Positions 2,071-49,481 of a stretch of 64,000 nucleotides of DNA are shown here, in pieces. The translations under genes and the position numbers were made by a program. The notes beneath the pieces were generated by a model that worked only from the letters and a program-made list of their open reading frames with translations, was not told the origin of the DNA and did no database searches. Every line of letters starts with the position of its first letter. The first letter of the stretch is position 1. Location: the IMG/VR virus record IMGVR_UViG_2724678985_000012. The stretch is one strand, 5' to 3'. This stretch comes from a virus (lineage: Duplodnaviria; Heunggongvirae; Uroviricota; Caudoviricetes).

Positions 2071-4000
2071 CAATCCTTTACGAATTAATATTCAGTCTAC
2101 TTTTGCTGATACGATCCCCGGCTATATGCCAAGTCGCTGGTCTTCAGAAGAATTAAGCGAAGATGACCTGATTTTTGAGGCGGCGACCTTAGAAGATATT
2201 GAGCTTGCCTATATGGGCAATGAAATTCTGGTTGTGTCTGACGAAGCTATGTTTGAGTCCATAACTACAACCAGAATTCGGTTAGCTCAAACAATGCGAG
2301 CTTTCGTCCGTGCGCTGAATCGTGGCCTGAATGGTACGAATATTATGGCAGGGACTGATGAAGCTGGGACCGATGAAAATGGACGTAATTGTATTGGTGG
2401 TGCGATTATCGGTCGTGTACGTCGGGTAGCTAATATCCCTGTTTTGACCGCGCAGATACCGCTTACTGACGGGCAGAGTACAAGCATAATTTTCCACTCT
2501 CCAACAGCTGACGGGGCAAAAATAAAGAGTAACGACGAGCTTGTTGCATTTCAGTTTTTACTTAATAAGCGTAACGTAACTCACGTTGTCGCCCCGATTG
2601 GTGGGAGAGATGTTTCTTTAAGCCAGGTATGCCAGGCGCTATCTAATTTGATTGAGCGTAACAGCGAAAAATTTAAGAAAGCAAAAGAGCGCCAGGACAA
2701 AATGAAGGCAGATATTGAGAGTTATCTCAATGAAGCAGATAAACTGGCAGAAGAACGGTCAATAATGATTGATCAGGTGGAAGTTGCGCAACGTGGGCTG
2801 ACTGAAAAGCGTGCTGCTCTTACGGAGATGCAAAAAAAACTTGATGCCCAGAAAGCTATCAATGAGGAGTTACAAGCAAAACGCGATAAATTGTTGTCTT
2901 CTAAAGGAGAAAAAACGAAAGAACGAGCGTTTAGTGACCAGCTGCGACATGTAAAACATAATCTTGCCATTGACGGAAAAACAGTGCTGGATAATGGCGC
3001 TGAAGTTAATTATGTCACGTCCGGCAGTGACAATTTCGTTACGATAGTAGCACCTGAAGGTAAATTCAGTATTGATGCCAGTGCTGTCAAAGGAGGCAGT
3101 TTGGCAGATGCTGCAACCAAATTACTTAAAGCCTACCGAGAGCATAACGCAGAAAAATATAAAGTTGATTTGTTACCAGGCCAGCTGGAAGACTCCGAAC
3201 CACCACAGACGGACCCCGAAACAAACCCAGTATCACAACCAGAGAGCCAAGATGTAGGTAAATACCACTATGCACTTCAATCTCGCCCGGCTGGTGTTGG
3301 TGCTGTTCCGGATGGAAATAAAGCCGTGCTTGATCGTCCTGACCAGGCTGATCAGTATTACGAATATGCTCGTCACGGTATCATTACGTATGACCGTAAA
3401 CTGACAGATGAAGAAGTCAGCCAGTACGAGTTGCTTTATCTTCCTGATGAAGATGAGCTGAAAGATTTTGCAGGCCAATTGGTTGCGTCCAGCATGTCGA
3501 AACATATTGATGGCTATGTGGACCTGTTTGGCAGTGACCTGAAAACATTCAAGGCGCAAGTGAAAATTCTTTTCCGCAAAGCGTTTCCAAACGTGGCGTA
3601 TCCACTTAGTGATGGGGAGAACCTTTTCATTATGGACGTGTATAACGCCCTTCAAAATCATTCAAGCGAAGTAAAAACAGAGCATGTGGTTGAGCCAGAA
3701 TCACAACCACAACCACAACCACAACCAGCACCAGAACAGGAGTCGGAGCCAGAAGAAGCGGGTGAATCAGCAAGTGAAGCTGATCAGGAAGCAGATAAAG
3801 CGCTGGAGTACCTGAAATCCGTGCCGGAGCAGTTTACATCCCGCGATCTGACGGTCATCAGTGCTGAACTTGATCATGTGCAGGAAGCAGCAAACGCTCT
3901 AATCAGTGCAGGTCGATACGACGAGAACGAAGCCACTGTGGGTGCAGCAGTTGACTACCTGATCAATATTCTGGCTGAAATTCAGCAGGGAGGTGTTTAA
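2057..4000 (+). CDS. large coiled-coil protein, candidate DarA-like internal head / antirestriction protein
   Basis: about 647 aa, central coiled coil, acidic QP-repeat linker; size and synteny with P1 darA operon. Confidence 0.35.
   Translation: MSMINNPLRINIQSTFADTIPGYMPSRWSSEELSEDDLIFEAATLEDIELAYMGNEILVVSDEAMFESITTTRIRLAQTMRAFVRALNRGLNGTNIMAGTDEAGTDENGRNCIGGAIIGRVRRVANIPVLTAQIPLTDGQSTSIIFHSPTADGAKIKSNDELVAFQFLLNKRNVTHVVAPIGGRDVSLSQVCQALSNLIERNSEKFKKAKERQDKMKADIESYLNEADKLAEERSIMIDQVEVAQRGLTEKRAALTEMQKKLDAQKAINEELQAKRDKLLSSKGEKTKERAFSDQLRHVKHNLAIDGKTVLDNGAEVNYVTSGSDNFVTIVAPEGKFSIDASAVKGGSLADAATKLLKAYREHNAEKYKVDLLPGQLEDSEPPQTDPETNPVSQPESQDVGKYHYALQSRPAGVGAVPDGNKAVLDRPDQADQYYEYARHGIITYDRKLTDEEVSQYELLYLPDEDELKDFAGQLVASSMSKHIDGYVDLFGSDLKTFKAQVKILFRKAFPNVAYPLSDGENLFIMDVYNALQNHSSEVKTEHVVEPESQPQPQPQPAPEQESEPEEAGESASEADQEADKALEYLKSVPEQFTSRDLTVISAELDHVQEAANALISAGRYDENEATVGAAVDYLINILAEIQQGGV
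3703..3728 (+). repeat. in-frame hexanucleotide microsatellite (ACAACC)x4 encoding a QP repeat
   Basis: cacaaccacaaccacaaccacaacca inside the 2057-4000 ORF. Confidence 0.8.
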
Positions 4001-9838: not shown

Positions 9839-10019
9839 TTTGCTGTTTCTAAATCGGAATGTATGATCTGCATCATCGACTGAAGTCATCCATTGCTGAA
9901 ATTTTTAGTTGATCTTCCATGTTTTCAGGCTTATATTCATGCCGTCGTAGCAAATTCTGCGACCAGGTTTGACAGCCTGAATGTTAGTGCGGACAACCGC
10001 AGATTTCCGATATTGCGGT

Positions 10020-10183
10020 ATTTTTGTGTCCGTAAACCGCGTTACGCCCGAATTATGGTGGGGCGTGATGGGGAGGCTTCGGCCTGCTGGTTTCACTAAC
10101 GCCAGTCTGTCAACCCTGTCACGTCCTGCCACCTGTTTGACAGCGGGTAGCAGGTTGTTAAACCTGTTAGTGAGGCCGTAACT
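10020..10183 (+). ncRNA. c4-like antisense RNA / icd leader region of immI module 1 (boundaries approximate)
   Basis: structured leader directly upstream of icd-like ORF; internal complementary segments GGTTTCACTAACGCC / CCTGTTAGTGAGGCC. Confidence 0.3.
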
Positions 10184-20397: not shown

Positions 20398-20693
20398 GCA
20401 AAAAATATTATGTGAGTCTGGCGTTCGCTGACGATGCGGGGAGGACGCGGAGTATCACGTTGAGCACACCGGTTAAGGCTGTGACAGCGCCGTTAATCCG
20501 TGAAGCTCTCAGAGAGCTGGAATTGGGTGAAAACTCGGCACTGTTGTCGGTTAGTTGGTTAGGGAAAATGTCAGAGAAACAATACGTGGATGGAGTTACC
20601 CCAATAACAGTAATGAGGCTACTTTCATTGCTGCAATGGGCCATCGTACCTGTATTTATCGCGTATCTTATTTATCAGGCTGCAACACAGTAA
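20379..20693 (+). CDS. hypothetical protein with C-terminal transmembrane helix
   Basis: 104 aa; C-terminal hydrophobic LLSLLQWAIVPVFIAYLIY; start uncertain. Confidence 0.35.
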   Translation: MGVCTLSKKYYVSLAFADDAGRTRSITLSTPVKAVTAPLIREALRELELGENSALLSVSWLGKMSEKQYVDGVTPITVMRLLSLLQWAIVPVFIAYLIYQAATQ

Positions 20694-20700
20694 TTGCATA

Positions 20701-20728
20701 AAAACCCGCCAATTAGCGGGTTTTTTGT
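20701..20728 (+). terminator. rho-independent terminator
   Basis: aaaacccgcc-aatta-gcgggtttttt. Confidence 0.8.
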
Positions 20729-20765
20729 TTATTGCATCTTCCGGTACCGCCATCAAACTAATAAA

Positions 20766-20782
20766 ATATGTTAGAAAACTAA
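20766..20782 (-). promoter_or_regulatory. C1-operator-like motif site 4
   Basis: ATATGTTAGAAAACTAATTTAAC upstream of 20807 gene. Confidence 0.5.
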
Positions 20783-20806
20783 TTTAACAAAGTGACGGGA
20801 ACAGCA

Positions 20807-22015
20807 ATGAGTCAACACACTGATACTTCTAATCTGGAAATTATCTCGACAGCAATTGAAACGCTGCGCACACAAATCGCTCTTATACAGAAACGGAATC
20901 CGGGTGATGACCTGTCAAAGCGACTGCACGAGAGTGTCATTGCCACTACAGATAACCTGGTGGCGGAAATCAACAAGCTGCTTGATGATGGGGCAGTTGA
21001 TTACAATAAGCTGGTGGATCAGTTTGAGGAATACCAACAAGCCGTTAATGATGGCTTGATCCGTTTTTCACAAGTCACAGGCGTATCAGCGACAGTTGAA
21101 AGCCTGGGTGATGCAGTTAATCAATTTGCCGCGAATATGCGTAATGAGATCGGCAATCTGGAAGCGCGTCTTGAACAGGCAAATACACTGCGTAAATCTG
21201 CCGAAGCCGATTTGAACCGTTACAAAAAAGACTATCCGCCCAGCCTGACAAAGCGGCTGGATGTTGCGGAGAAGGATAACCGCGCGCTGAAAAGAGAGCG
21301 CCGGGAACTAAAAGAGCGTTTAACCAAGCTCAATCAGCAATGCATTGATTATCAAGGCGAAGGCGTCACACTGCGTAAAAAGTTGGCTACAGCGCAGAGC
21401 ATTATCGAAACATTAAAGCGAGAGTGCTCACAGCTTGGTCACGATCTGAACCGTGCTTGTGGCATGGGACAAAGACCAGAGACATTTCCACTCATGTATG
21501 ATGGAAGGGATGCCATTGCCTACATCCATGAGTATCCGCACGGCCTGGTTGCGGAAACAGGGCAGCGTGGCGAAGCACTGTTGACGGCTAATTACCATCA
21601 ACAAATCAGAACCAATCGCCTGTTAACGATGGATGTGATCCCATCGGTATGGGGAACGCCGCTTTACTATCGCCTGCCGGGCTTCGAAAAGGACTGGAAT
21701 ACCGACATAGACGAATGTCTCGCAGATAAAATTATGGCGTACCTGGAGACGGATTTTCCGCGCTTATATCGCCGGATTATGGACTCTAAGGATGCGCCAA
21801 TCGATGAATTAAAAATGCGTCCGGAGACGCTGGAGGCAATCAAGCAGACGGAGTTTGATACTGTATTCAGTGTGGCCTGCATTCCAAGCTGTTTCCATGA
21901 AAGCATCCCGTTCATGCAAGGAGATCGTCGTCAGGAAATCATTGACGCTTGCCGGGTATGGGCGAACGAATGGGATAAGAAGAATGGGGGTGTAGAAGAT
22001 CTTTATGGGAAATAA
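20807..22015 (+). CDS. hypothetical coiled-coil protein
   Basis: about 402 aa; N-terminal coiled coil, C-terminal globular domain; start chosen at ATG 20807. Confidence 0.4.
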   Translation: MSQHTDTSNLEIISTAIETLRTQIALIQKRNPGDDLSKRLHESVIATTDNLVAEINKLLDDGAVDYNKLVDQFEEYQQAVNDGLIRFSQVTGVSATVESLGDAVNQFAANMRNEIGNLEARLEQANTLRKSAEADLNRYKKDYPPSLTKRLDVAEKDNRALKRERRELKERLTKLNQQCIDYQGEGVTLRKKLATAQSIIETLKRECSQLGHDLNRACGMGQRPETFPLMYDGRDAIAYIHEYPHGLVAETGQRGEALLTANYHQQIRTNRLLTMDVIPSVWGTPLYYRLPGFEKDWNTDIDECLADKIMAYLETDFPRLYRRIMDSKDAPIDELKMRPETLEAIKQTEFDTVFSVACIPSCFHESIPFMQGDRRQEIIDACRVWANEWDKKNGGVEDLYGK

Positions 22016-22032
22016 TGTGTTAGAAATCTAAA
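22016..22032 (-). promoter_or_regulatory. C1-operator-like motif site 5
   Basis: GTGTTAGAAATCTAAAATC. Confidence 0.45.
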
Positions 22033-23249
22033 ATCACAATTCGAATGTATTGATTGTGGAGATAACTTAACATAGAATTTTCCTTGCTGGTGGGCAGTAC
22101 CCACGTTTCGCTTGCTGGGCTTGATAGTCACTTATTGGTTATTGTTCGCCCACCAGCATTTAACAAATTAAAGTGTTAGAAAAGTATGGTAATGCAAGAG
22201 CACGCTTTGGCACCGTGCAGGCCAAAGTTCAGCAGGTTTAGTGCGGAAAGTGGTTTCAGAGAGAGCACTTTGCGGAGTAAACGACAATACATGTTGAGCC
22301 ACGGAAGGTCTTTTTAAGGTGTTCATTGATGATGGTCCGGCAGAGAGTAACGGTACATGCTGCATCTAATCATCAATGCACATCTTCAACATTAAGGAGG
22401 CATAGGGATTTTTGTGGCGGTTACCTTTTGCCCTGAGTCTCCTTAATGTTGCGGTAATGCACCTATGCGGATGTGGCCTTGCATTGTGTCTTGAAAGAAT
22501 GGGGTAAGGCCGGGGATATCCCCAGGGGGAGGCACCCCCGCTGCAACGAACAGCCACAGACGGCAGTCGAGTGATGGAAACGTGTAAAGACTTTAAACCT
22601 CGTTACGGCTGGCGTGGCAAACGCGACAACCGAGACAGAGCGGTGACGGGCGGAGAGAGTGCCGCATCAAGAAAGAAGCCGACTTGTGATCCCTTTCTGC
22701 GGGCATTTGAAAGTGAATCCAGCTCAGGCAGTCGGCTTCTTTCTTGTGTGAGATGTAGCGTATTTGCCCATCTTCGGGTGGGCTTTTTTAGGGTTTTCGT
22801 CATGGTTAGCGACTTTGCGGCGGTTTAGAAACCGACCATTAAAGTAAATGCAAACGATGATCTGATGATGGTAGCGGCCTAAGAAGCCAGACGCCACGGG
22901 GTATGAGTCGTCCCCCGTCAAAAAATCGACCGCAGAGTGTCCCCGTCTGTGTATTAGGGAACGGGGAGGCATAACAGGCAAGGGCGCTGGTGTGATTAAC
23001 CAGATGAATGAGAAGGGTCAGGTCTTTCTGGTCAGCGCCCTTACCTGTTACGTCCCTCCCGCGTAACAGCCATTGATTAATGGCTTTCTGGGATAACATC
23101 CTACTACGGGTATATCCCGTCATGCTGAAGGCGCTAATCACGCTGGAAGCCAGGGTTGTGCATCCCCTGTTACCGAATTGCAGCCAGGGCGCGGTGCGCC
23201 GAAAAGCATACGGAGGTGGAAGCCCTCGCCGGAGACGTACCCGGCAAGT
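22033..23249 (+). other. about 1.2-kb GC-rich non-coding leader of the tRNA array with many stable hairpins; candidate structured ncRNA
   Basis: no convincing ORF (only short low-complexity frames); multiple perfect 10-14 bp stems and terminator-like gcccatcttcgggtgggctttttt near 22763. Confidence 0.4.
22171..22187 (-). promoter_or_regulatory. C1-operator-like motif site 6
   Basis: AAGTGTTAGAAAAGTATGG. Confidence 0.45.
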
Positions 23250-23326
23250 GATGGTGTAGCTCAGTAGGATAGAGCAGCAGCCTTCTAAGCTGTCGGTCGG
23301 TGGTTCGAATCCACCCACCATCGCCA
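23250..23326 (+). tRNA. tRNA-Arg (anticodon UCU)
   Basis: 77 nt cloverleaf: acceptor GATGGTG/CACCATC, anticodon loop CTTCTAA, T-loop TTCGAAT, encoded CCA. Confidence 0.85.
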
Positions 23327-23331
23327 ATTTA

Positions 23332-23418
23332 GGGGAGTTAGTCCGTAGGGGTAGCGGGGTAGACTGTAAATCTACTGTCATTGCGACTCGGGTGGTTCGA
23401 CTCCATCACTCCCCACCA
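23332..23418 (+). tRNA. tRNA-Tyr (anticodon GUA), long variable arm
   Basis: 87 nt; anticodon stem-loop GTAGA-CTGTAAA-TCTAC as in E. coli tRNA-Tyr; acceptor GGGGAGT/ACTCCCC; CCA. Confidence 0.75.
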
Positions 23419-23422
23419 AATT

Positions 23423-23498
23423 GCCGGTTTAGCTCAGTTGGTAGAGCGCCTGCCTTGTAAGCAGGATGTCAGCGGTTCGAGTCCGTTAACCGGCACCA
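23423..23498 (+). tRNA. tRNA-Thr (anticodon UGU)
   Basis: 76 nt; acceptor GCCGGTT/AACCGGC; anticodon loop CTTGTAA; CCA. Confidence 0.85.
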
Positions 23499-23704
23499 AC
23501 ACAACAGGTAAGGGCATTCTCCCTTATGGGGCTTGGCTTAAATGCATCGAGTGCTCTTACCGTTGTGATGAAGTGCAGCTCTTTGAAGCAACCAGAAGAT
23601 AAGCATCTGGCTTCACAACATAAACCGCAGGAACGACCAATAAACGGTAGTCCGTATGGAGAACACCCCGTTGAGGAAGAGGCCTGGCCGGAACCGTAAC
23701 CGGC

Positions 23705-23803
23705 ACCACAACGTTGAGAACACTGGCGTAACGGGGTCATATCCCAATCTATGAATAAATGTTGCGTTGCAGCGTGACAACCAGTGTTCTCAACATTGTG
23801 GTG
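23705..23803. repeat. long inverted repeat (20-bp arms) of the tRNA-island leader/trailer repeat family
   Basis: CACCACAACGTTGAGAACACTGG ... CCAGTGTTCTCAACATTGTGGTG; related copies at 23498-23518, 23562-23592, 23881-23902, 24080-24111. Confidence 0.7.
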
Positions 23804-23900
23804 AATGCACAGGCTGATGTGCCGCAACTACAGTAGTGCGCGCTTTGCGGGGCTTGCTACAACCCTGTGTCGGAGTTCAGCACCGACCATCACAATCACT

Positions 23901-23987
23901 GGAGAGTAGGGAGCATGGTGCTCAAGCGGTCTTGAAAACCGTCCCATTGCGCAAGCGATGATGGTTCGATTCCATTACTCTCCGCCA
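23901..23987 (+). tRNA. tRNA-Ser (anticodon UGA), class II with long variable arm
   Basis: 87 nt; acceptor GGAGAGT/ACTCTCC; anticodon stem-loop GCGGT-CTTGAAA-ACCGT; CCA. Confidence 0.7.
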
Positions 23988-24250
23988 GTGCAACGTTAAG
24001 AGTATTTGGCTAATTAAGCGAATGCCGGAAGCAGAACCGGATCACCAAATGCGTACAGGCGTCATCGCCGCCCAGCCAGCCAAGTGCTCTTACCATTGCG
24101 GTGAATGCGGCTAAGCGCACGCGGAACAGTTAAAACAATCCTCCTTAGTGGTTAAGTCAAACATCCCGGCGTTAATTGTTAACTGGTTAACGTCACCTGG
24201 AGGCACCAGGCACCGCAGCTTTTTTATTCGGTAAATAATGGAGTGAGAGG

Positions 24251-25294
24251 ATGCAGAACAATCCGAACAAATGTCGAACGCTATGGGTGCGGTTATATAT
24301 TTATGTCGTCCTCTGTTTGATTGTGTCACTGGTTCTGTATGTTTGGCTTTTGCCAAATATGATCTCATCTGACAGCACAATACTTGTATTGTTGGGAGTC
24401 CTTCTCGCGCTCATTTACCCGGCTTTTGCAGTAGTCTTTTTTCGTGAAAAAACCAGGAAATTGATTAATGAAAAAACGTTGATTAGTGCAGCGATTATTT
24501 TTGGTTCTTTATGTCTGACCGGATGCGATCGGGTAGAGCCAGGTAACGTAGGGATCAAAGTAAATAAGCTGGGGGATGATAAAGGTATCGGTGAAGTAGT
24601 TGGCGTTGGTCGCTACTGGACAGGCTTGAATACTGAAGTTTATATCTTCCCGACCTTTAAGCAAATGAAGACATACGATGAGCCGTTCAGCTTCCAGATG
24701 AGCGACGGAACAACCATTGGTTACCACATCGGCGTAGCCTACAAGGTTGATCCAGCAAAAGTCACAACGGTATTTCAGACCTATCGCAAAGGTGTAGATG
24801 ATATTACTGATACCGATCTACGCCAGAAGGTTGCAGATGCTCTGAACCGGTTAGCCAGCAAAATGACCACCGACAAATTTATCGACGGTGGCAAATCTGA
24901 ATTGCTTGATGCAGCCCTTAAAGACATTCAGGAAGAAATGACGCCCATCGGTATTCAGGTAATGAGCCTCTCATATGTGGGCAAGCCGGAGTACCCGCCA
25001 ACCGTTATCGACAGCATTAATGCCAAAGTCACGGCGAACCAGAAAACTCTGCAACGCGAGCAGGAAGTCAAGCAACGCGAAGCAGAAGCCAACATGCTGC
25101 GCGCAGAAGCTGCTGGACAGGCCGATGCCATTCGCACAAAAGCCCAGGCTGAAGCTGATGCCATTCGTTTACGCGGTGAGGCTCTGCGCCAGAACCCCGG
25201 CGTTATGGAGTTGGAAGCGATCAACAAATGGAACGGAACGCTACCGCAGTATATGACCAGTAATACCGCTGTTCCGTTTGTTCCGGTGAAATAA
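24251..25294 (+). CDS. SPFH (band-7/prohibitin)-domain membrane protein
   Basis: N-terminal TM/lipobox-like LTGC; SPFH-like core then Ala/Glu-rich coiled coil; true start likely downstream (24358 or later). Confidence 0.55.
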   Translation: MQNNPNKCRTLWVRLYIYVVLCLIVSLVLYVWLLPNMISSDSTILVLLGVLLALIYPAFAVVFFREKTRKLINEKTLISAAIIFGSLCLTGCDRVEPGNVGIKVNKLGDDKGIGEVVGVGRYWTGLNTEVYIFPTFKQMKTYDEPFSFQMSDGTTIGYHIGVAYKVDPAKVTTVFQTYRKGVDDITDTDLRQKVADALNRLASKMTTDKFIDGGKSELLDAALKDIQEEMTPIGIQVMSLSYVGKPEYPPTVIDSINAKVTANQKTLQREQEVKQREAEANMLRAEAAGQADAIRTKAQAEADAIRLRGEALRQNPGVMELEAINKWNGTLPQYMTSNTAVPFVPVK

Positions 25295-25448
25295 CCAAAT
25301 AGATAACATGATGGAATTTTGGACGTTTGCCGACAAGAACCCTTGGTGGACATTTTTATTTCTGCTGGTGGTTGCATATGGGGTCGAGCAAGCAGCAAAA
25401 GCCTTACGCGGTCCTGGCAAAAAGCGTAAGCGGAATTAACAGTAATCT

Positions 25449-25524
25449 GGCCCTTTAGCTCAGTGGTTAGAGCTGGCGACTCATAATCGCACGGTCACCG
25501 GTTCAAGTCCGGTAGGGGCCACCA
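25449..25524 (+). tRNA. tRNA-Ile2 (anticodon CAU, ileX-like; Met not excluded)
   Basis: 76 nt; near-identical architecture to E. coli ileX; anticodon loop CTCATAA; CCA. Confidence 0.75.
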
Positions 25525-25978
25525 TATTTGGTTGTAACACGGCGTCTGGCACATGCGTCGTTAGCGGTCTGGTGACGTTAAAGGGGTATCTTTGACTCTT
25601 GCTCAGGCAAACGGACCAGGTAGCCGGAATGTGCAAGCCCCGATAACAGTGGCGGACCGAGGACTCACCATCCTGGCGATTCGGTGTGACAGCCGGAAGA
25701 GCACGGCGCACAACAGGAAAAGGCGTTTAATTAGCGTGAGCGCCGTTTCCGTTGTGGTAATTGCGGCTATGCGCTCGTGACGAAGCCATTTTTATTCACT
25801 ACGTTCTGATAAGTGACGTCGCCAGGAGTGGCTAACCTGGCAGGTGGAGGCACCACCGCCACAACTCCTTTCAATTCATCATATAGCCGCTCAGGCTGTA
25901 CCCCTTAATTAATACGAATTTACGACATCACTACCGGCACTTCCGGGGGATAGTCGCGCGTGTAAAAAAGGAGACGTT

Positions 25979-48682: not shown

Positions 48683-49299
48683 TTAAGTTGAATTGTGAAT
48701 TTCCCCGATGTACATTCACTACCGATTGGTACACCGGTCAACTTTTTGAGACAAACTGTTTAGTTTTTCGTATTATTGCCGCCGCCATACCTATGGCGGT
48801 GCAATATAGGTGGCTGAAAAGCCCCCGTTGACTCACGGTGTTCCAGCCTTTATTGCGCCGCCACCAGACCGTGGAACAGTCGATGGCGGCTCCGAAAGCA
48901 AGGAGTCACTACACTATGAACAACTACAGTCTTTTCCCATCACTCGTCGTCCACCACTCACGCGATAATCTGCATTCTTTACTCGCGCCGGGGGTGTCAA
49001 AATGACTGTTCGCTACCTCAACTTTCAAATCAAGAACATTACTGGCGGTTGCTATGACTGGTTTGTCACTCTCGGAAAAGAAGTGATTACTGGTAAACTG
49101 GATGAAGTGAAAGCTAAAGCAATGGCCTACGCCTGCAAGCAAACCAGGAAGAAATCCGCCAAAGCATAAAATACTGACTGTTGCGCCCTGGCATTATCGT
49201 GGGGTATATTTCTACGGCACCTTAGAAAAACGGGTGCCGGGATTGGAACCCCGGATAATGTCAAAGGCGACACAGACGCCGAAAGCGTCTTTTTTTGTG

Positions 49300-49481
49300 T
49301 CACGCCATCGCACAGCCATACGTAGCGTTTAGCTCAGAGATCAATGGTAGTGCTGGCTGGGCTGCCGAAAGGCAGGCCGGTTCCCTTTGACGCCGGTAGT
49401 TCCAACCCAGTCAGTGCTACCGCCATTGAGATTGGAACCTCACGCGGTAGCTCCTTAACTTAGTCAAAGGAGGCTGCCAAT
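49300..49481 (+). ncRNA. c4-like antisense RNA / icd leader region of immI module 2 (boundaries approximate)
   Basis: follows terminator gacgc-cgaaa-gcgtcTTTTTTT; tRNA-like GTTTAGCTCAG; GGTAGTGCTGGCTGGG pairs with CCCAGTCAGTGCTACC 45 nt downstream. Confidence 0.35.

Follow-up and report, generated by a model that had tools for sequence, protein, structure and literature searches.

Transfer-messenger RNA (tmRNA; SsrA, RF00023, with the two-piece or permuted forms RF01849-51 and RF04321) holds a short tag reading frame that is entered at a resume codon, without a start codon. The tag of Escherichia coli tmRNA is ANDENYALAA, and it is preceded by AUAGUC. To our knowledge, tmRNA has always been defined by both of its halves, and ARAGORN as well as the tmRNA database pipeline discard anything without tRNA-like ends. 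A precedent for messenger and acceptor on separate chains is given by the two-piece tmRNAs of Alphaproteobacteria, some Betaproteobacteria and Cyanobacteria, which derive their two chains from a single permuted gene and have the 5' acceptor strand on the coding piece. A tmRNA database paper from 2025 lists 79 phage tmRNAs, for which tRNA-like ends were required and truncated forms rejected, and reports a tag-less phage form, from mycobacteriophage DS6A, whose expression in E. coli inhibits the host tmRNA (PMC11915505). Another phage-borne RNA, STnc100/PasD (RF02076), has been described in a 2026 preprint as a prophage Hfq-dependent small RNA (sRNA) located next to gene Q, and tmRNA is never mentioned there (bioRxiv 10.64898/2026.05.13.724894). 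In this study, we analysed a 64,000-nucleotide (nt) stretch of DNA from a Caudoviricetes virus (IMG/VR record IMGVR_UViG_2724678985_000012), referred to as the window, and within it the non-coding leader at 22016-23249, which separates a pmgS-like gene (20792/20807-22015) from a tRNA array, and which an earlier note made from the sequence had singled out for its dense secondary structure. The leader is a chain of separate structured-RNA cassettes with different distributions, not one RNA, and one of these cassettes is a messenger-plus-pseudoknot relative of tmRNA which, by the definition of that family, is not itself a tmRNA. Our reading is that the interval is the leader of a repressor-controlled tRNA/ban operon, built of mobile RNA cassettes, in which the tmRNA-like module serves as a trans-translation-like template; we give this statement as a whole a probability of roughly 45%. 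Its anatomy alone, i.e. a modular non-coding leader with a conserved tmRNA-like tag/pseudoknot RNA, we regard as highly probable.

The 10-codon frame of the module (coordinates of all features are given in Table 1) is under coding-type constraint. It opens at a GCA resume codon after the context …AAAGUAAAU and, as read from the sequence, lacks an in-frame start codon, with in-frame stops closing it upstream. The resume codon is preceded by UAAAU, in which U-5, A-4 and A-3 are invariant. As in tmRNA, a start-less frame runs from a resume codon with the U-5/A-4 context and an out-of-frame stop triplet before it, and specifies a 10-codon tag that starts with Ala-Asn-Asp and ends with a hydrophobic residue, Ala-Ala and the stop. 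Across 126 copies, ~100 of them from a pattern scan of IMG/VR, the frame always has exactly 10 codons and a stop, encoding 20 peptides in 34 nucleotide versions; synonymous variants are present, and TAA, TAG and TGA all serve as stop. The codon-position entropy of the frame is 6.0/3.9/9.3 bits (positions 1/2/3), variation in codons 1-3 and 9-10 is confined to third positions, and the two other frames contain stops in 91/92 and 74/92 copies. The tags have the C-termini MAA, AVA or VAA, e.g. ANDDVVLMAA in Bas77 (Drexlerviridae), in SP-058 and Pylas (Schitoviridae) and also in a Klebsiella plasmid (L008), ANDSEVLMAA in 0507-KN2-1 (Ackermannviridae), ANDNVFLAVA in wV8 (Felixounavirus) and ANDNEFKVAA in the Erwinia phage phiEa2809. 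The tmRNA likeness would be coincidental if the ribosome read an ordinary mini-ORF (open reading frame) or leader peptide here, or another frame (AUG at -2 to +1: AUG CAA ACG AUG AUC UGA), with the module acting as a cis-regulatory leader, e.g. for read-through into tRNAs or lysis genes. Most copies do have an AUG at -2, and the module always lies in operon leaders, just past a terminator in P1-type elements and lambdoid prophages; but the conserved frame has neither a Shine-Dalgarno sequence nor a start codon, and the AUG frame is variable in length, is absent in the Ackermannviridae type (UAACUGCU) and varies in the reverse of a coding pattern, its second position being the most variable. 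In T1-like phages, moreover, the module has a predicted promoter of its own and looks like a stand-alone RNA locus. We consider the mini-ORF very improbable.

The sequence around the tag folds in a tmRNA-like manner, with two covarying H-type pseudoknots (PKa and PKb) after the tag and the stop codon held in the loop of a hairpin, much as tmRNA has it in helix 5. RNAalifold recovered one hairpin after the tag, PKa stem 1, in which 11, 11 and 8 sequences carry double compensatory changes. PKa stem 2, formed between the loop and a downstream tetramer, is complementary in 63 of 64 main-type copies by anchored counts, its states being GA/UC (51), AG/CU (8) and AA/UU (4), with GUCG/CGAC in the P1 type. 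Nine complementary variants were found of PKb stem 1 (e.g. CACU/GGUG, CAGA/UCUG, CAUU/GAUG, UGGA/UCCG, GAGU/ACUC and UACU/GGUA) and about 10 of PKb stem 2, all of them complementary (e.g. GCCC/GGGC, UCCCCG/CGGGGA, GCCCUGA/UCAGGGC, UCCCUGA/UCAGGGA, GGCGGGAG/CUCCCGCC, GACGGGAG/CUCCCGUC, AUCC/GGAU and GCCCAC/GUGGGC). Upstream of the resume codon, a helix that encloses the invariant UUUAGAAAC shows modest covariation (CUUUG/CAAAG, ACUUUG/UAAAGU, UUUGC/GCAAA, UUAUG/CAUAA), and the invariant 5' GUUUU could pair with an equally invariant GAAAC into a PK1-like knot. The stop codon in a hairpin loop, the pseudoknots after the tag and a probable pseudoknot or helix just upstream of it are thus all likenesses to tmRNA; the module differs in its length (~180 nt vs ~360 nt) and in having two, perhaps three, pseudoknots rather than four.

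The tmRNA_permuted, alpha, beta and standard tmRNA models of Rfam align at the tag, on the correct strand and below threshold, in all seven copies tested (the window and six loci). The best alignment is to the tag region of the permuted model, a likeness to the two-piece forms, and it matches UAAAUGCAAACGAU…GUAGC.GCCUAA almost base for base, with the tRNA-like part deleted. The module is not a canonical tmRNA, because no tRNA-like domain was found: it lacks acceptor stem, T-arm, G3:U70 and CCA end, and a further difference from tmRNA is its location in cassette arrays of tRNAs or sRNAs on phages and plasmids. From two-piece tmRNA it differs in that neither a partner nor an acceptor strand was identified. 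Several results weigh against its use as a template. The best Rfam scores (24-34 bits with RF04321, threshold 47; 15 bits with RF00023) do not reach the gathering score, and with ARAGORN, at default and mildly relaxed (-ps) thresholds, neither the window nor any of eight relatives yielded a tmRNA. A custom search for a T-arm together with a strand complementary to the 5' end of the element gave chance matches only, no G3:U70 or CCA end was seen, and similarity or complementarity to E. coli ssrA is not significant beyond the first tag codons. A tRNA-like neighbour lies within 1.3 kb in 37 of 60 copies, few of these having a canonical T-arm. In this phage a terminator (22766-22789) lies between promoter and module, so that expression of the module needs read-through. 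Finally, in the Klebsiella pneumoniae IncY plasmid pSCKLB684-mcr (L005/L244), which has no tRNAs downstream, a TnpB-only insertion element (1172-2500) splits the module at the equivalent of window ~22828; the module is therefore dispensable for maintenance of that plasmid. Scattered 'permuted' calls by ARAGORN at a 70% threshold were judged spurious. Recent capture from the host ssrA, or pairing with it, was also considered and rejected, as shuffled sequences scored as well in local alignment and in duplex energy; the module was therefore not recently copied from the host.

The missing acceptor end could mean that the module is a decoy, which mimics the messenger and pseudoknot part of the host tmRNA and titrates a factor binding that part, such as ribosomal protein S1, RNase R or SmpB, thereby damping or redirecting trans-translation during phage growth; the tag itself would never be translated. 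The inhibition of host tmRNA by the tag-less DS6A form is a precedent for such phage interference (PMC11915505), and proteins could bind at the invariant UAAAU and at the 5' domain. A decoy, however, needs neither a constant frame length nor third-position-biased variation, nor a terminal Ala-Ala or Val-Ala, nor a conserved stop, and the tag differs in sequence from that of the host. We consider the decoy unlikely. With somewhat more weight, though still tentatively, we propose a mobile tmRNA-derived tag cassette without an acceptor end, present in at least five unrelated enterobacterial phage groups (P1, P7 and lambdoid prophages included), which would reprogram ribosome rescue either as a split tmRNA together with a tRNA-like RNA or by hijacked entry of the host tmRNA-SmpB, giving a phage-specified C-terminal tag. 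A split, two-piece arrangement with a tRNA-like neighbour is possible, judging from such neighbours in the sequence.

Neighbouring tRNA-like RNAs were seen at several loci. Directly after the tag module in a prophage of E. coli 55989 (L369, 3739-3885) lies a tRNA-like RNA missed by ARAGORN; it has an acceptor-like stem UUGUGGU/GCCACAA, a D-arm AGCUC-AAUGGC-GAGCU, a ~90-nt insertion, a canonical T-arm GCCGG-UUCGAUU-CCGGC and an encoded CCA. In the Klebsiella plasmid L008, several tRNA-like pieces, likewise uncalled by ARAGORN, and one tRNA-Gln lie at 2600-3500, in a 1.6-kb unannotated gap that opens with the tag module; T-arms GCGGGTTCGATTCCCGC and GTGGTTCGATTCCGC are there followed by acceptor-like strands. 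Salmonella phage FSL SP-058 (L250) has four tRNAs at 296-968 in GenBank and none by ARAGORN or Rfam; the deposited coordinates may be shifted.

The module is widespread, and it was found in phages that are otherwise unrelated. A piece of ~90-150 nt from 22793 on also matched an unrelated 108-kb plasmid of Klebsiella (L008, K. pneumoniae pCRKP18622-1), and that copy, used as the query, matched 680 phage records, belonging to Drexlerviridae (T1-like), Schitoviridae (N4-like), Ackermannviridae (Vi01-like), Felixounavirus (Felix O1-like) and P1/P7/D6, as well as ~600 plasmids. Among complete E. coli genomes, 656 of 5426 carry the module, in 554 plasmid and 150 chromosomal places, and RefSeq annotates it at none of the E. 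coli places listed. It is undescribed in Rfam and within the searched literature, while a description elsewhere remains conceivable. In lytic phages it lies inside or beside tRNA clusters. T1-like phages provide it with a predicted promoter of its own (TTGACA-17-TAGATT), ending ~12 nt before GAUAGUUUUCG, and a promoter-like TTTACT-17-TAAGAT precedes it in L008. In lambdoid prophages it is found between the Q antiterminator gene and the holin gene, after a PR'-like promoter and a terminator, so that the order promoter, short RNA, terminator, module is the same in lambdoid prophages, in this phage and in P1. At the Bas77 locus (L249, 1194-1814) and other lytic-phage loci, coding sequences of 'hypothetical proteins' are annotated antisense to or across the module and its neighbour cassettes; these are probably gene-caller artefacts in an RNA-only locus.

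Is the leader then more than debris, i.e. decayed tRNA and tmRNA genes and recombination scars that merely persist between a promoter and useful tRNAs, with no RNA function of their own? Cassettes have been shuffled between phages (the hybrid leaders L007 and L349 described below), degenerate T-arm-like pieces occur in neighbouring modules, and one plasmid tolerates an insertion sequence in the tag module, all of which debris would accommodate. It would not account for a module kept across phage families that share little else, with its frame maintained and compensatory changes in at least three helices, nor for the near-invariance of an upstream core whose surroundings diverge to 83%, nor for a last 148 nt before the tRNA that are 99-100% identical between D6-type elements and P1. 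We judge debris to be highly improbable.

The 2.2 kb around the leader are 95.5% identical to Escherichia phage D6, and an identical copy is present on an E. coli plasmid. From 22763 on, where homology with P1/P7 exactly begins, identity to P1, P7 and many P1-like phage-plasmids is ~91-93%. The leader accordingly divides into 22016-22765 (module A), found in D6-type elements only, and 22763-23249, which is common to P1 and P7 and has 78% identity in Klebsiella IncY plasmids. In the annotation of P1/P7, the C1-repressed ban operon begins at the corresponding site, in the order bivalent operator Oban (Op72), P1ban/P2ban, 'dicF-like region', tRNA-Asn, tRNA-Thr, tciABC, tRNA-Ile and ban.

Operator-like sites and a promoter mark the beginning of the leader. 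The 9-mer TGTTAGAAA occurs 11 times in the window vs 0.58 expected, within a 17-bp consensus TGTTAGAAA-AY-TAATTT that is asymmetric and sometimes paired head-to-head. Sites are found upstream of repL, c4-icd-ant and pmgS, with two in the leader, at positions that correspond to the P1 operators Op53, Op51, Op86 and Op72; site 1 of the leader is kept in every copy of module A and is a complete inverted pair in the relative L349. From the sequence, the motif is probably the operator of a D6-type C1 repressor, because its positions match those of P1 operators and it is unlike the late-promoter boxes of P1. An Lpa late-promoter box was rejected on these grounds, the annotated -22 boxes of P1 being unrelated and the motif itself being asymmetric and sometimes head-to-head. 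No P1-type C1 operator was found in the window, even with three mismatches. The predicted promoter, which is the sole promoter-like site in 20600-25600, lies between the two leader sites; both its hexamers and both operator cores are kept in six copies, while the spacers differ. Elsewhere in the window, two C4 antisense RNA loci were noted, at 9931-10136 and 49217-49427, one with an a1/b1 target element (RF03163) and the other preceded by an isrK-like RNA (RF01394); the element therefore appears to carry two immI-type regions.

Table 1. Positions of the features discussed, numbered from the first nucleotide of the window
Feature	Position	Strand	Details
TGTTAGAAA sites	8626(-), 9825(+), 19727(+), 20769(+), 22018(+), 22174(+), 31401(-), 32811(-), 43457(+), 48672(-), 60164(-)/60143(+)		
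Operator-like site 1, TGTTAGAAATCTAAAAT	22018..22034	+	probable D6-type C1 repressor operator
Operator-like site 2, TGTTAGAAAAGTATGGT	22174..22190	+	from motif count, consensus and conservation
Sigma-70-type promoter, TTGATT-17-TAGAAT	22050..22078	+	predicted; likely start of leader transcript
Module A core	22385..22690	+	includes hairpin 22387-22399/22439-22451
Module A 3' end	22669..22789	+	long hairpin, single-stranded stretch, intrinsic terminator 22766-22783 and T-tract 22784-22789
tmRNA-like module	22791-22967	+	177 nt
5' domain	22791..22849	+	invariant GUUUUCG 22793-99; helix ACUUU 22812-16/AAAGU 22841-45 around UUUAGAAAC; UAAAU 22845-49
Tag frame	22850..22882	+	start-less; GCA AAC GAT GAT CTG ATG ATG GTA GCG GCC TAA = ANDDLMMVAA-stop
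Stop-codon hairpin	GGC 22876-78/GCC 22886-88	+	stop codon in loop
PKa (H-type)	stem 1 22896-22901/22913-18; stem 2 GUCG 22907-10/CGAC 22927-30	+	
PKb (H-type)	stem 1 CAGA 22933-36/UCUG 22946-49; stem 2 UCCCCG 22940-45/CGGGGA 22962-67	+	
Cassette-bounding long hairpin	22964..23060	+	3' flank motif …CATAACAGGCAAGGGCGCTG and 5' flank motif of next cassette CAGCGCCCTTACCTGTTAC…
P1-family-specific leader 5' of tRNA array	23061..23249	+	
tRNA array	Arg-TCT 23250, Tyr, Thr, Ser 23901, CAT-anticodon tRNA 25449		

Module A, which fills most of the leader upstream of the tmRNA-like module, is, as far as can be judged from its sequence, a D6-lineage-specific structured RNA of ~600-700 nt with an sRNA-like 3' end. 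When seven copies with identities as low as 83% are aligned, its first ~280 nt are variable and are followed by a nearly invariant core at ~22385-22690, copies being 83-90% identical overall. The core hairpin carries two double compensatory changes and has a rewritten loop in L349, and the hairpin 22669-22684/22730-22745 carries three. Among phage records, module A is absent from all except D6. Its terminator also closes the 'dicF-like region' of P1, whose sequence upstream of the shared terminator is unrelated, and the Rfam DicF model (RF00039) has no match in the window or at the P1 locus. No Rfam match was found for module A (STnc100 included, 22380-22700, E<=10), and a by-eye resemblance of 22448-22547 to STnc100 was given no support by the covariance model. 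Two D6-like plasmids or contigs, L007 and L349, have hybrid leaders, in which a D6-type core is joined to a P1-type 'dicF-like' segment that replaces the D6-type 3' end (alignment columns 750-830); leader cassettes therefore recombine between lineages.

These results largely bear out the earlier note, which had proposed structured RNA rather than spacer DNA: conservation, compensatory changes, promoter and terminator signals and the lack of a coding signal all back this view. The region does lack a credible ORF between the end of the pmgS-like gene at 22015 and tRNA-Arg at 23250 (the longest stop-free stretch, 136 aa, is antisense to tRNA), and eight ORFs have no Pfam match; an 85-aa ORF at 22571-22828 was dismissed as a hidden or decayed gene, since it crosses hairpin and terminator and since L007 and L349 have other sequence in place of its 3' part. 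The stems listed in the earlier note are present (22387-22399/22439-22451, 22669-22684/22730-22745 and 22964-22989/23033-23060), as is the terminator (22766-22783 and T6), and in folding energy both parts of the interval outdo their dinucleotide-shuffled versions, none of which was as good (22016-22795, z = -4.79; 22790-23249, z = -3.50). Comparison with relatives likewise favours structure, the stems keeping their pairing through compensatory changes. A GC content far above that of the flanks was overstated: it is 0.507 vs a window mean of 0.478, a value reached or exceeded by 14% of equal-sized windows; the first third, at 0.433, is AT-rich, and 22451-23249 (0.546) equals the tRNA array. A decayed intron or ribozyme found no match in Rfam, and a single large non-coding RNA gave way to several modules that differ in phylogenetic distribution. 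Rfam scans of the window, its sub-regions and related loci, at gathering and permissive thresholds, yielded no family for the interval; group I/II introns, ribozymes, ROOL and GOLLD gave nothing at the gathering score and only chance-level matches at E<=10.

Taken together, the interval may be seen as the leader of a repressor-controlled early operon with tRNA genes, with Oban/Pban - tRNAs - tciABC - ban as its counterpart in P1. Transcription would most likely start from the promoter flanked by the two TGTTAGAAA sites, and the first product would be the D6-lineage-specific RNA, able to end at its terminator. Transcripts that read through would contain the tmRNA-like module, the cassette-bounding hairpin, the pre-tRNA leader and the tRNAs, and the module could then be released by processing, perhaps through cuts within the long stems of its flanks. 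It would serve as a template from which a phage-specified degradation-type tag is added to stalled nascent chains, while a second molecule would provide the acceptor (tRNA-like) function, on the pattern of natural two-piece tmRNAs. Our confidence that the tag is translated in some trans-translation-like process is moderate, and that in any particular acceptor partner is low. If true, trans-translation would be fed by a template in trans, or phages would manipulate ribosome rescue in an undescribed way, and a messenger-only relative of tmRNA would be present in hundreds of phages, in about one tenth of complete E. coli genomes and in P1. In the tRNA regions of phages and in Q-holin leaders, gaps without annotation and questionable 'hypothetical proteins' would become readable as arrays of RNA cassettes with conserved processing stems.

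The stems between cassettes are formed by their flanks. A 5' flank AGTGCTCTTWCC(GTTGTG) and a 3' flank (CACAAC)AGGTAAGAGCATT are mutual reverse complements, and the motif pair CACAACAGGTAAGAGCATT / AGTGCTCTTACCGTTGTG borders modules in many phages. Variants stay complementary, e.g. ATGAGGGTATT/AGTACTCTCAT in Bas77 and GTTGAGAACACTGG/CCAGTGTTCTCAAC at window 23700-23807, and in the 'perfect stem' that the earlier note placed at 22975-23040, and that spans 22964-23060, the tag module's 3' flank pairs with the 5' flank of the cassette that follows. Long stems that enclose stable RNAs are classic RNase III substrates, and it is for this reason that we infer a role in processing; recombination joints between cassettes are equally compatible with the evidence. 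Downstream of the bounding hairpin, 23061-23249 contains conserved hairpins with very little sequence variation and probably belongs to the tRNA precursor; P1 and P7 match its last 148 nt at 99-100% identity, which exceeds the conservation of the sequence beside them.

STnc100/PasD resembles the tag module in its neighbourhoods, i.e. next to gene Q and in phage RNA-gene clusters (bioRxiv 10.64898/2026.05.13.724894), and in its conserved flanks (AGTGCTCTTACC|GTTGTGGTGAA…), and in phage 0507-KN2-1 a full STnc100 match (51.6 bits) lies 1 kb from the tag module. The tag module itself has no STnc100 similarity and is a separate RNA. The Pas sRNAs were rejected as another name for it, being ~84 nt long, terminator-ended and almost only chromosomal (bioRxiv 10.64898/2026.05.13.724894).

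Downstream of the tRNAs, three further structured modules were observed, at 23563-23712, 23790-23898 and 24096-24217, each with a closing stem of the GTTGTG…CACAAC type and a T-arm-like hairpin beside the 3' strand. Only one of the three scores with STnc100 (24097-24217; RF02076, 39.4 bits, threshold 47); for 23563-23898 an STnc100-like identity was rejected, since the covariance model gives no match in 23495-23905 at E<=10. The three modules occupy the stretch that in P1 holds plp and upl on the opposite strand, plp overlapping tRNA-Thr; this arrangement suggests that plp and upl may both be miscalled in P1. At 23250-23418 the window carries tRNA-Arg(TCT) and tRNA-Tyr, where P1 (L002, 3494-3569) and D6 (L001, 3735-3810) have tRNA-Asn. 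Acceptor stem and ends (GATGGTGTAGCTCAG…CCACCATCGCCA) are common to the Arg and Asn genes, whose anticodon and T arms differ, a pattern which suggests that the tRNA body was swapped within a fixed cassette.

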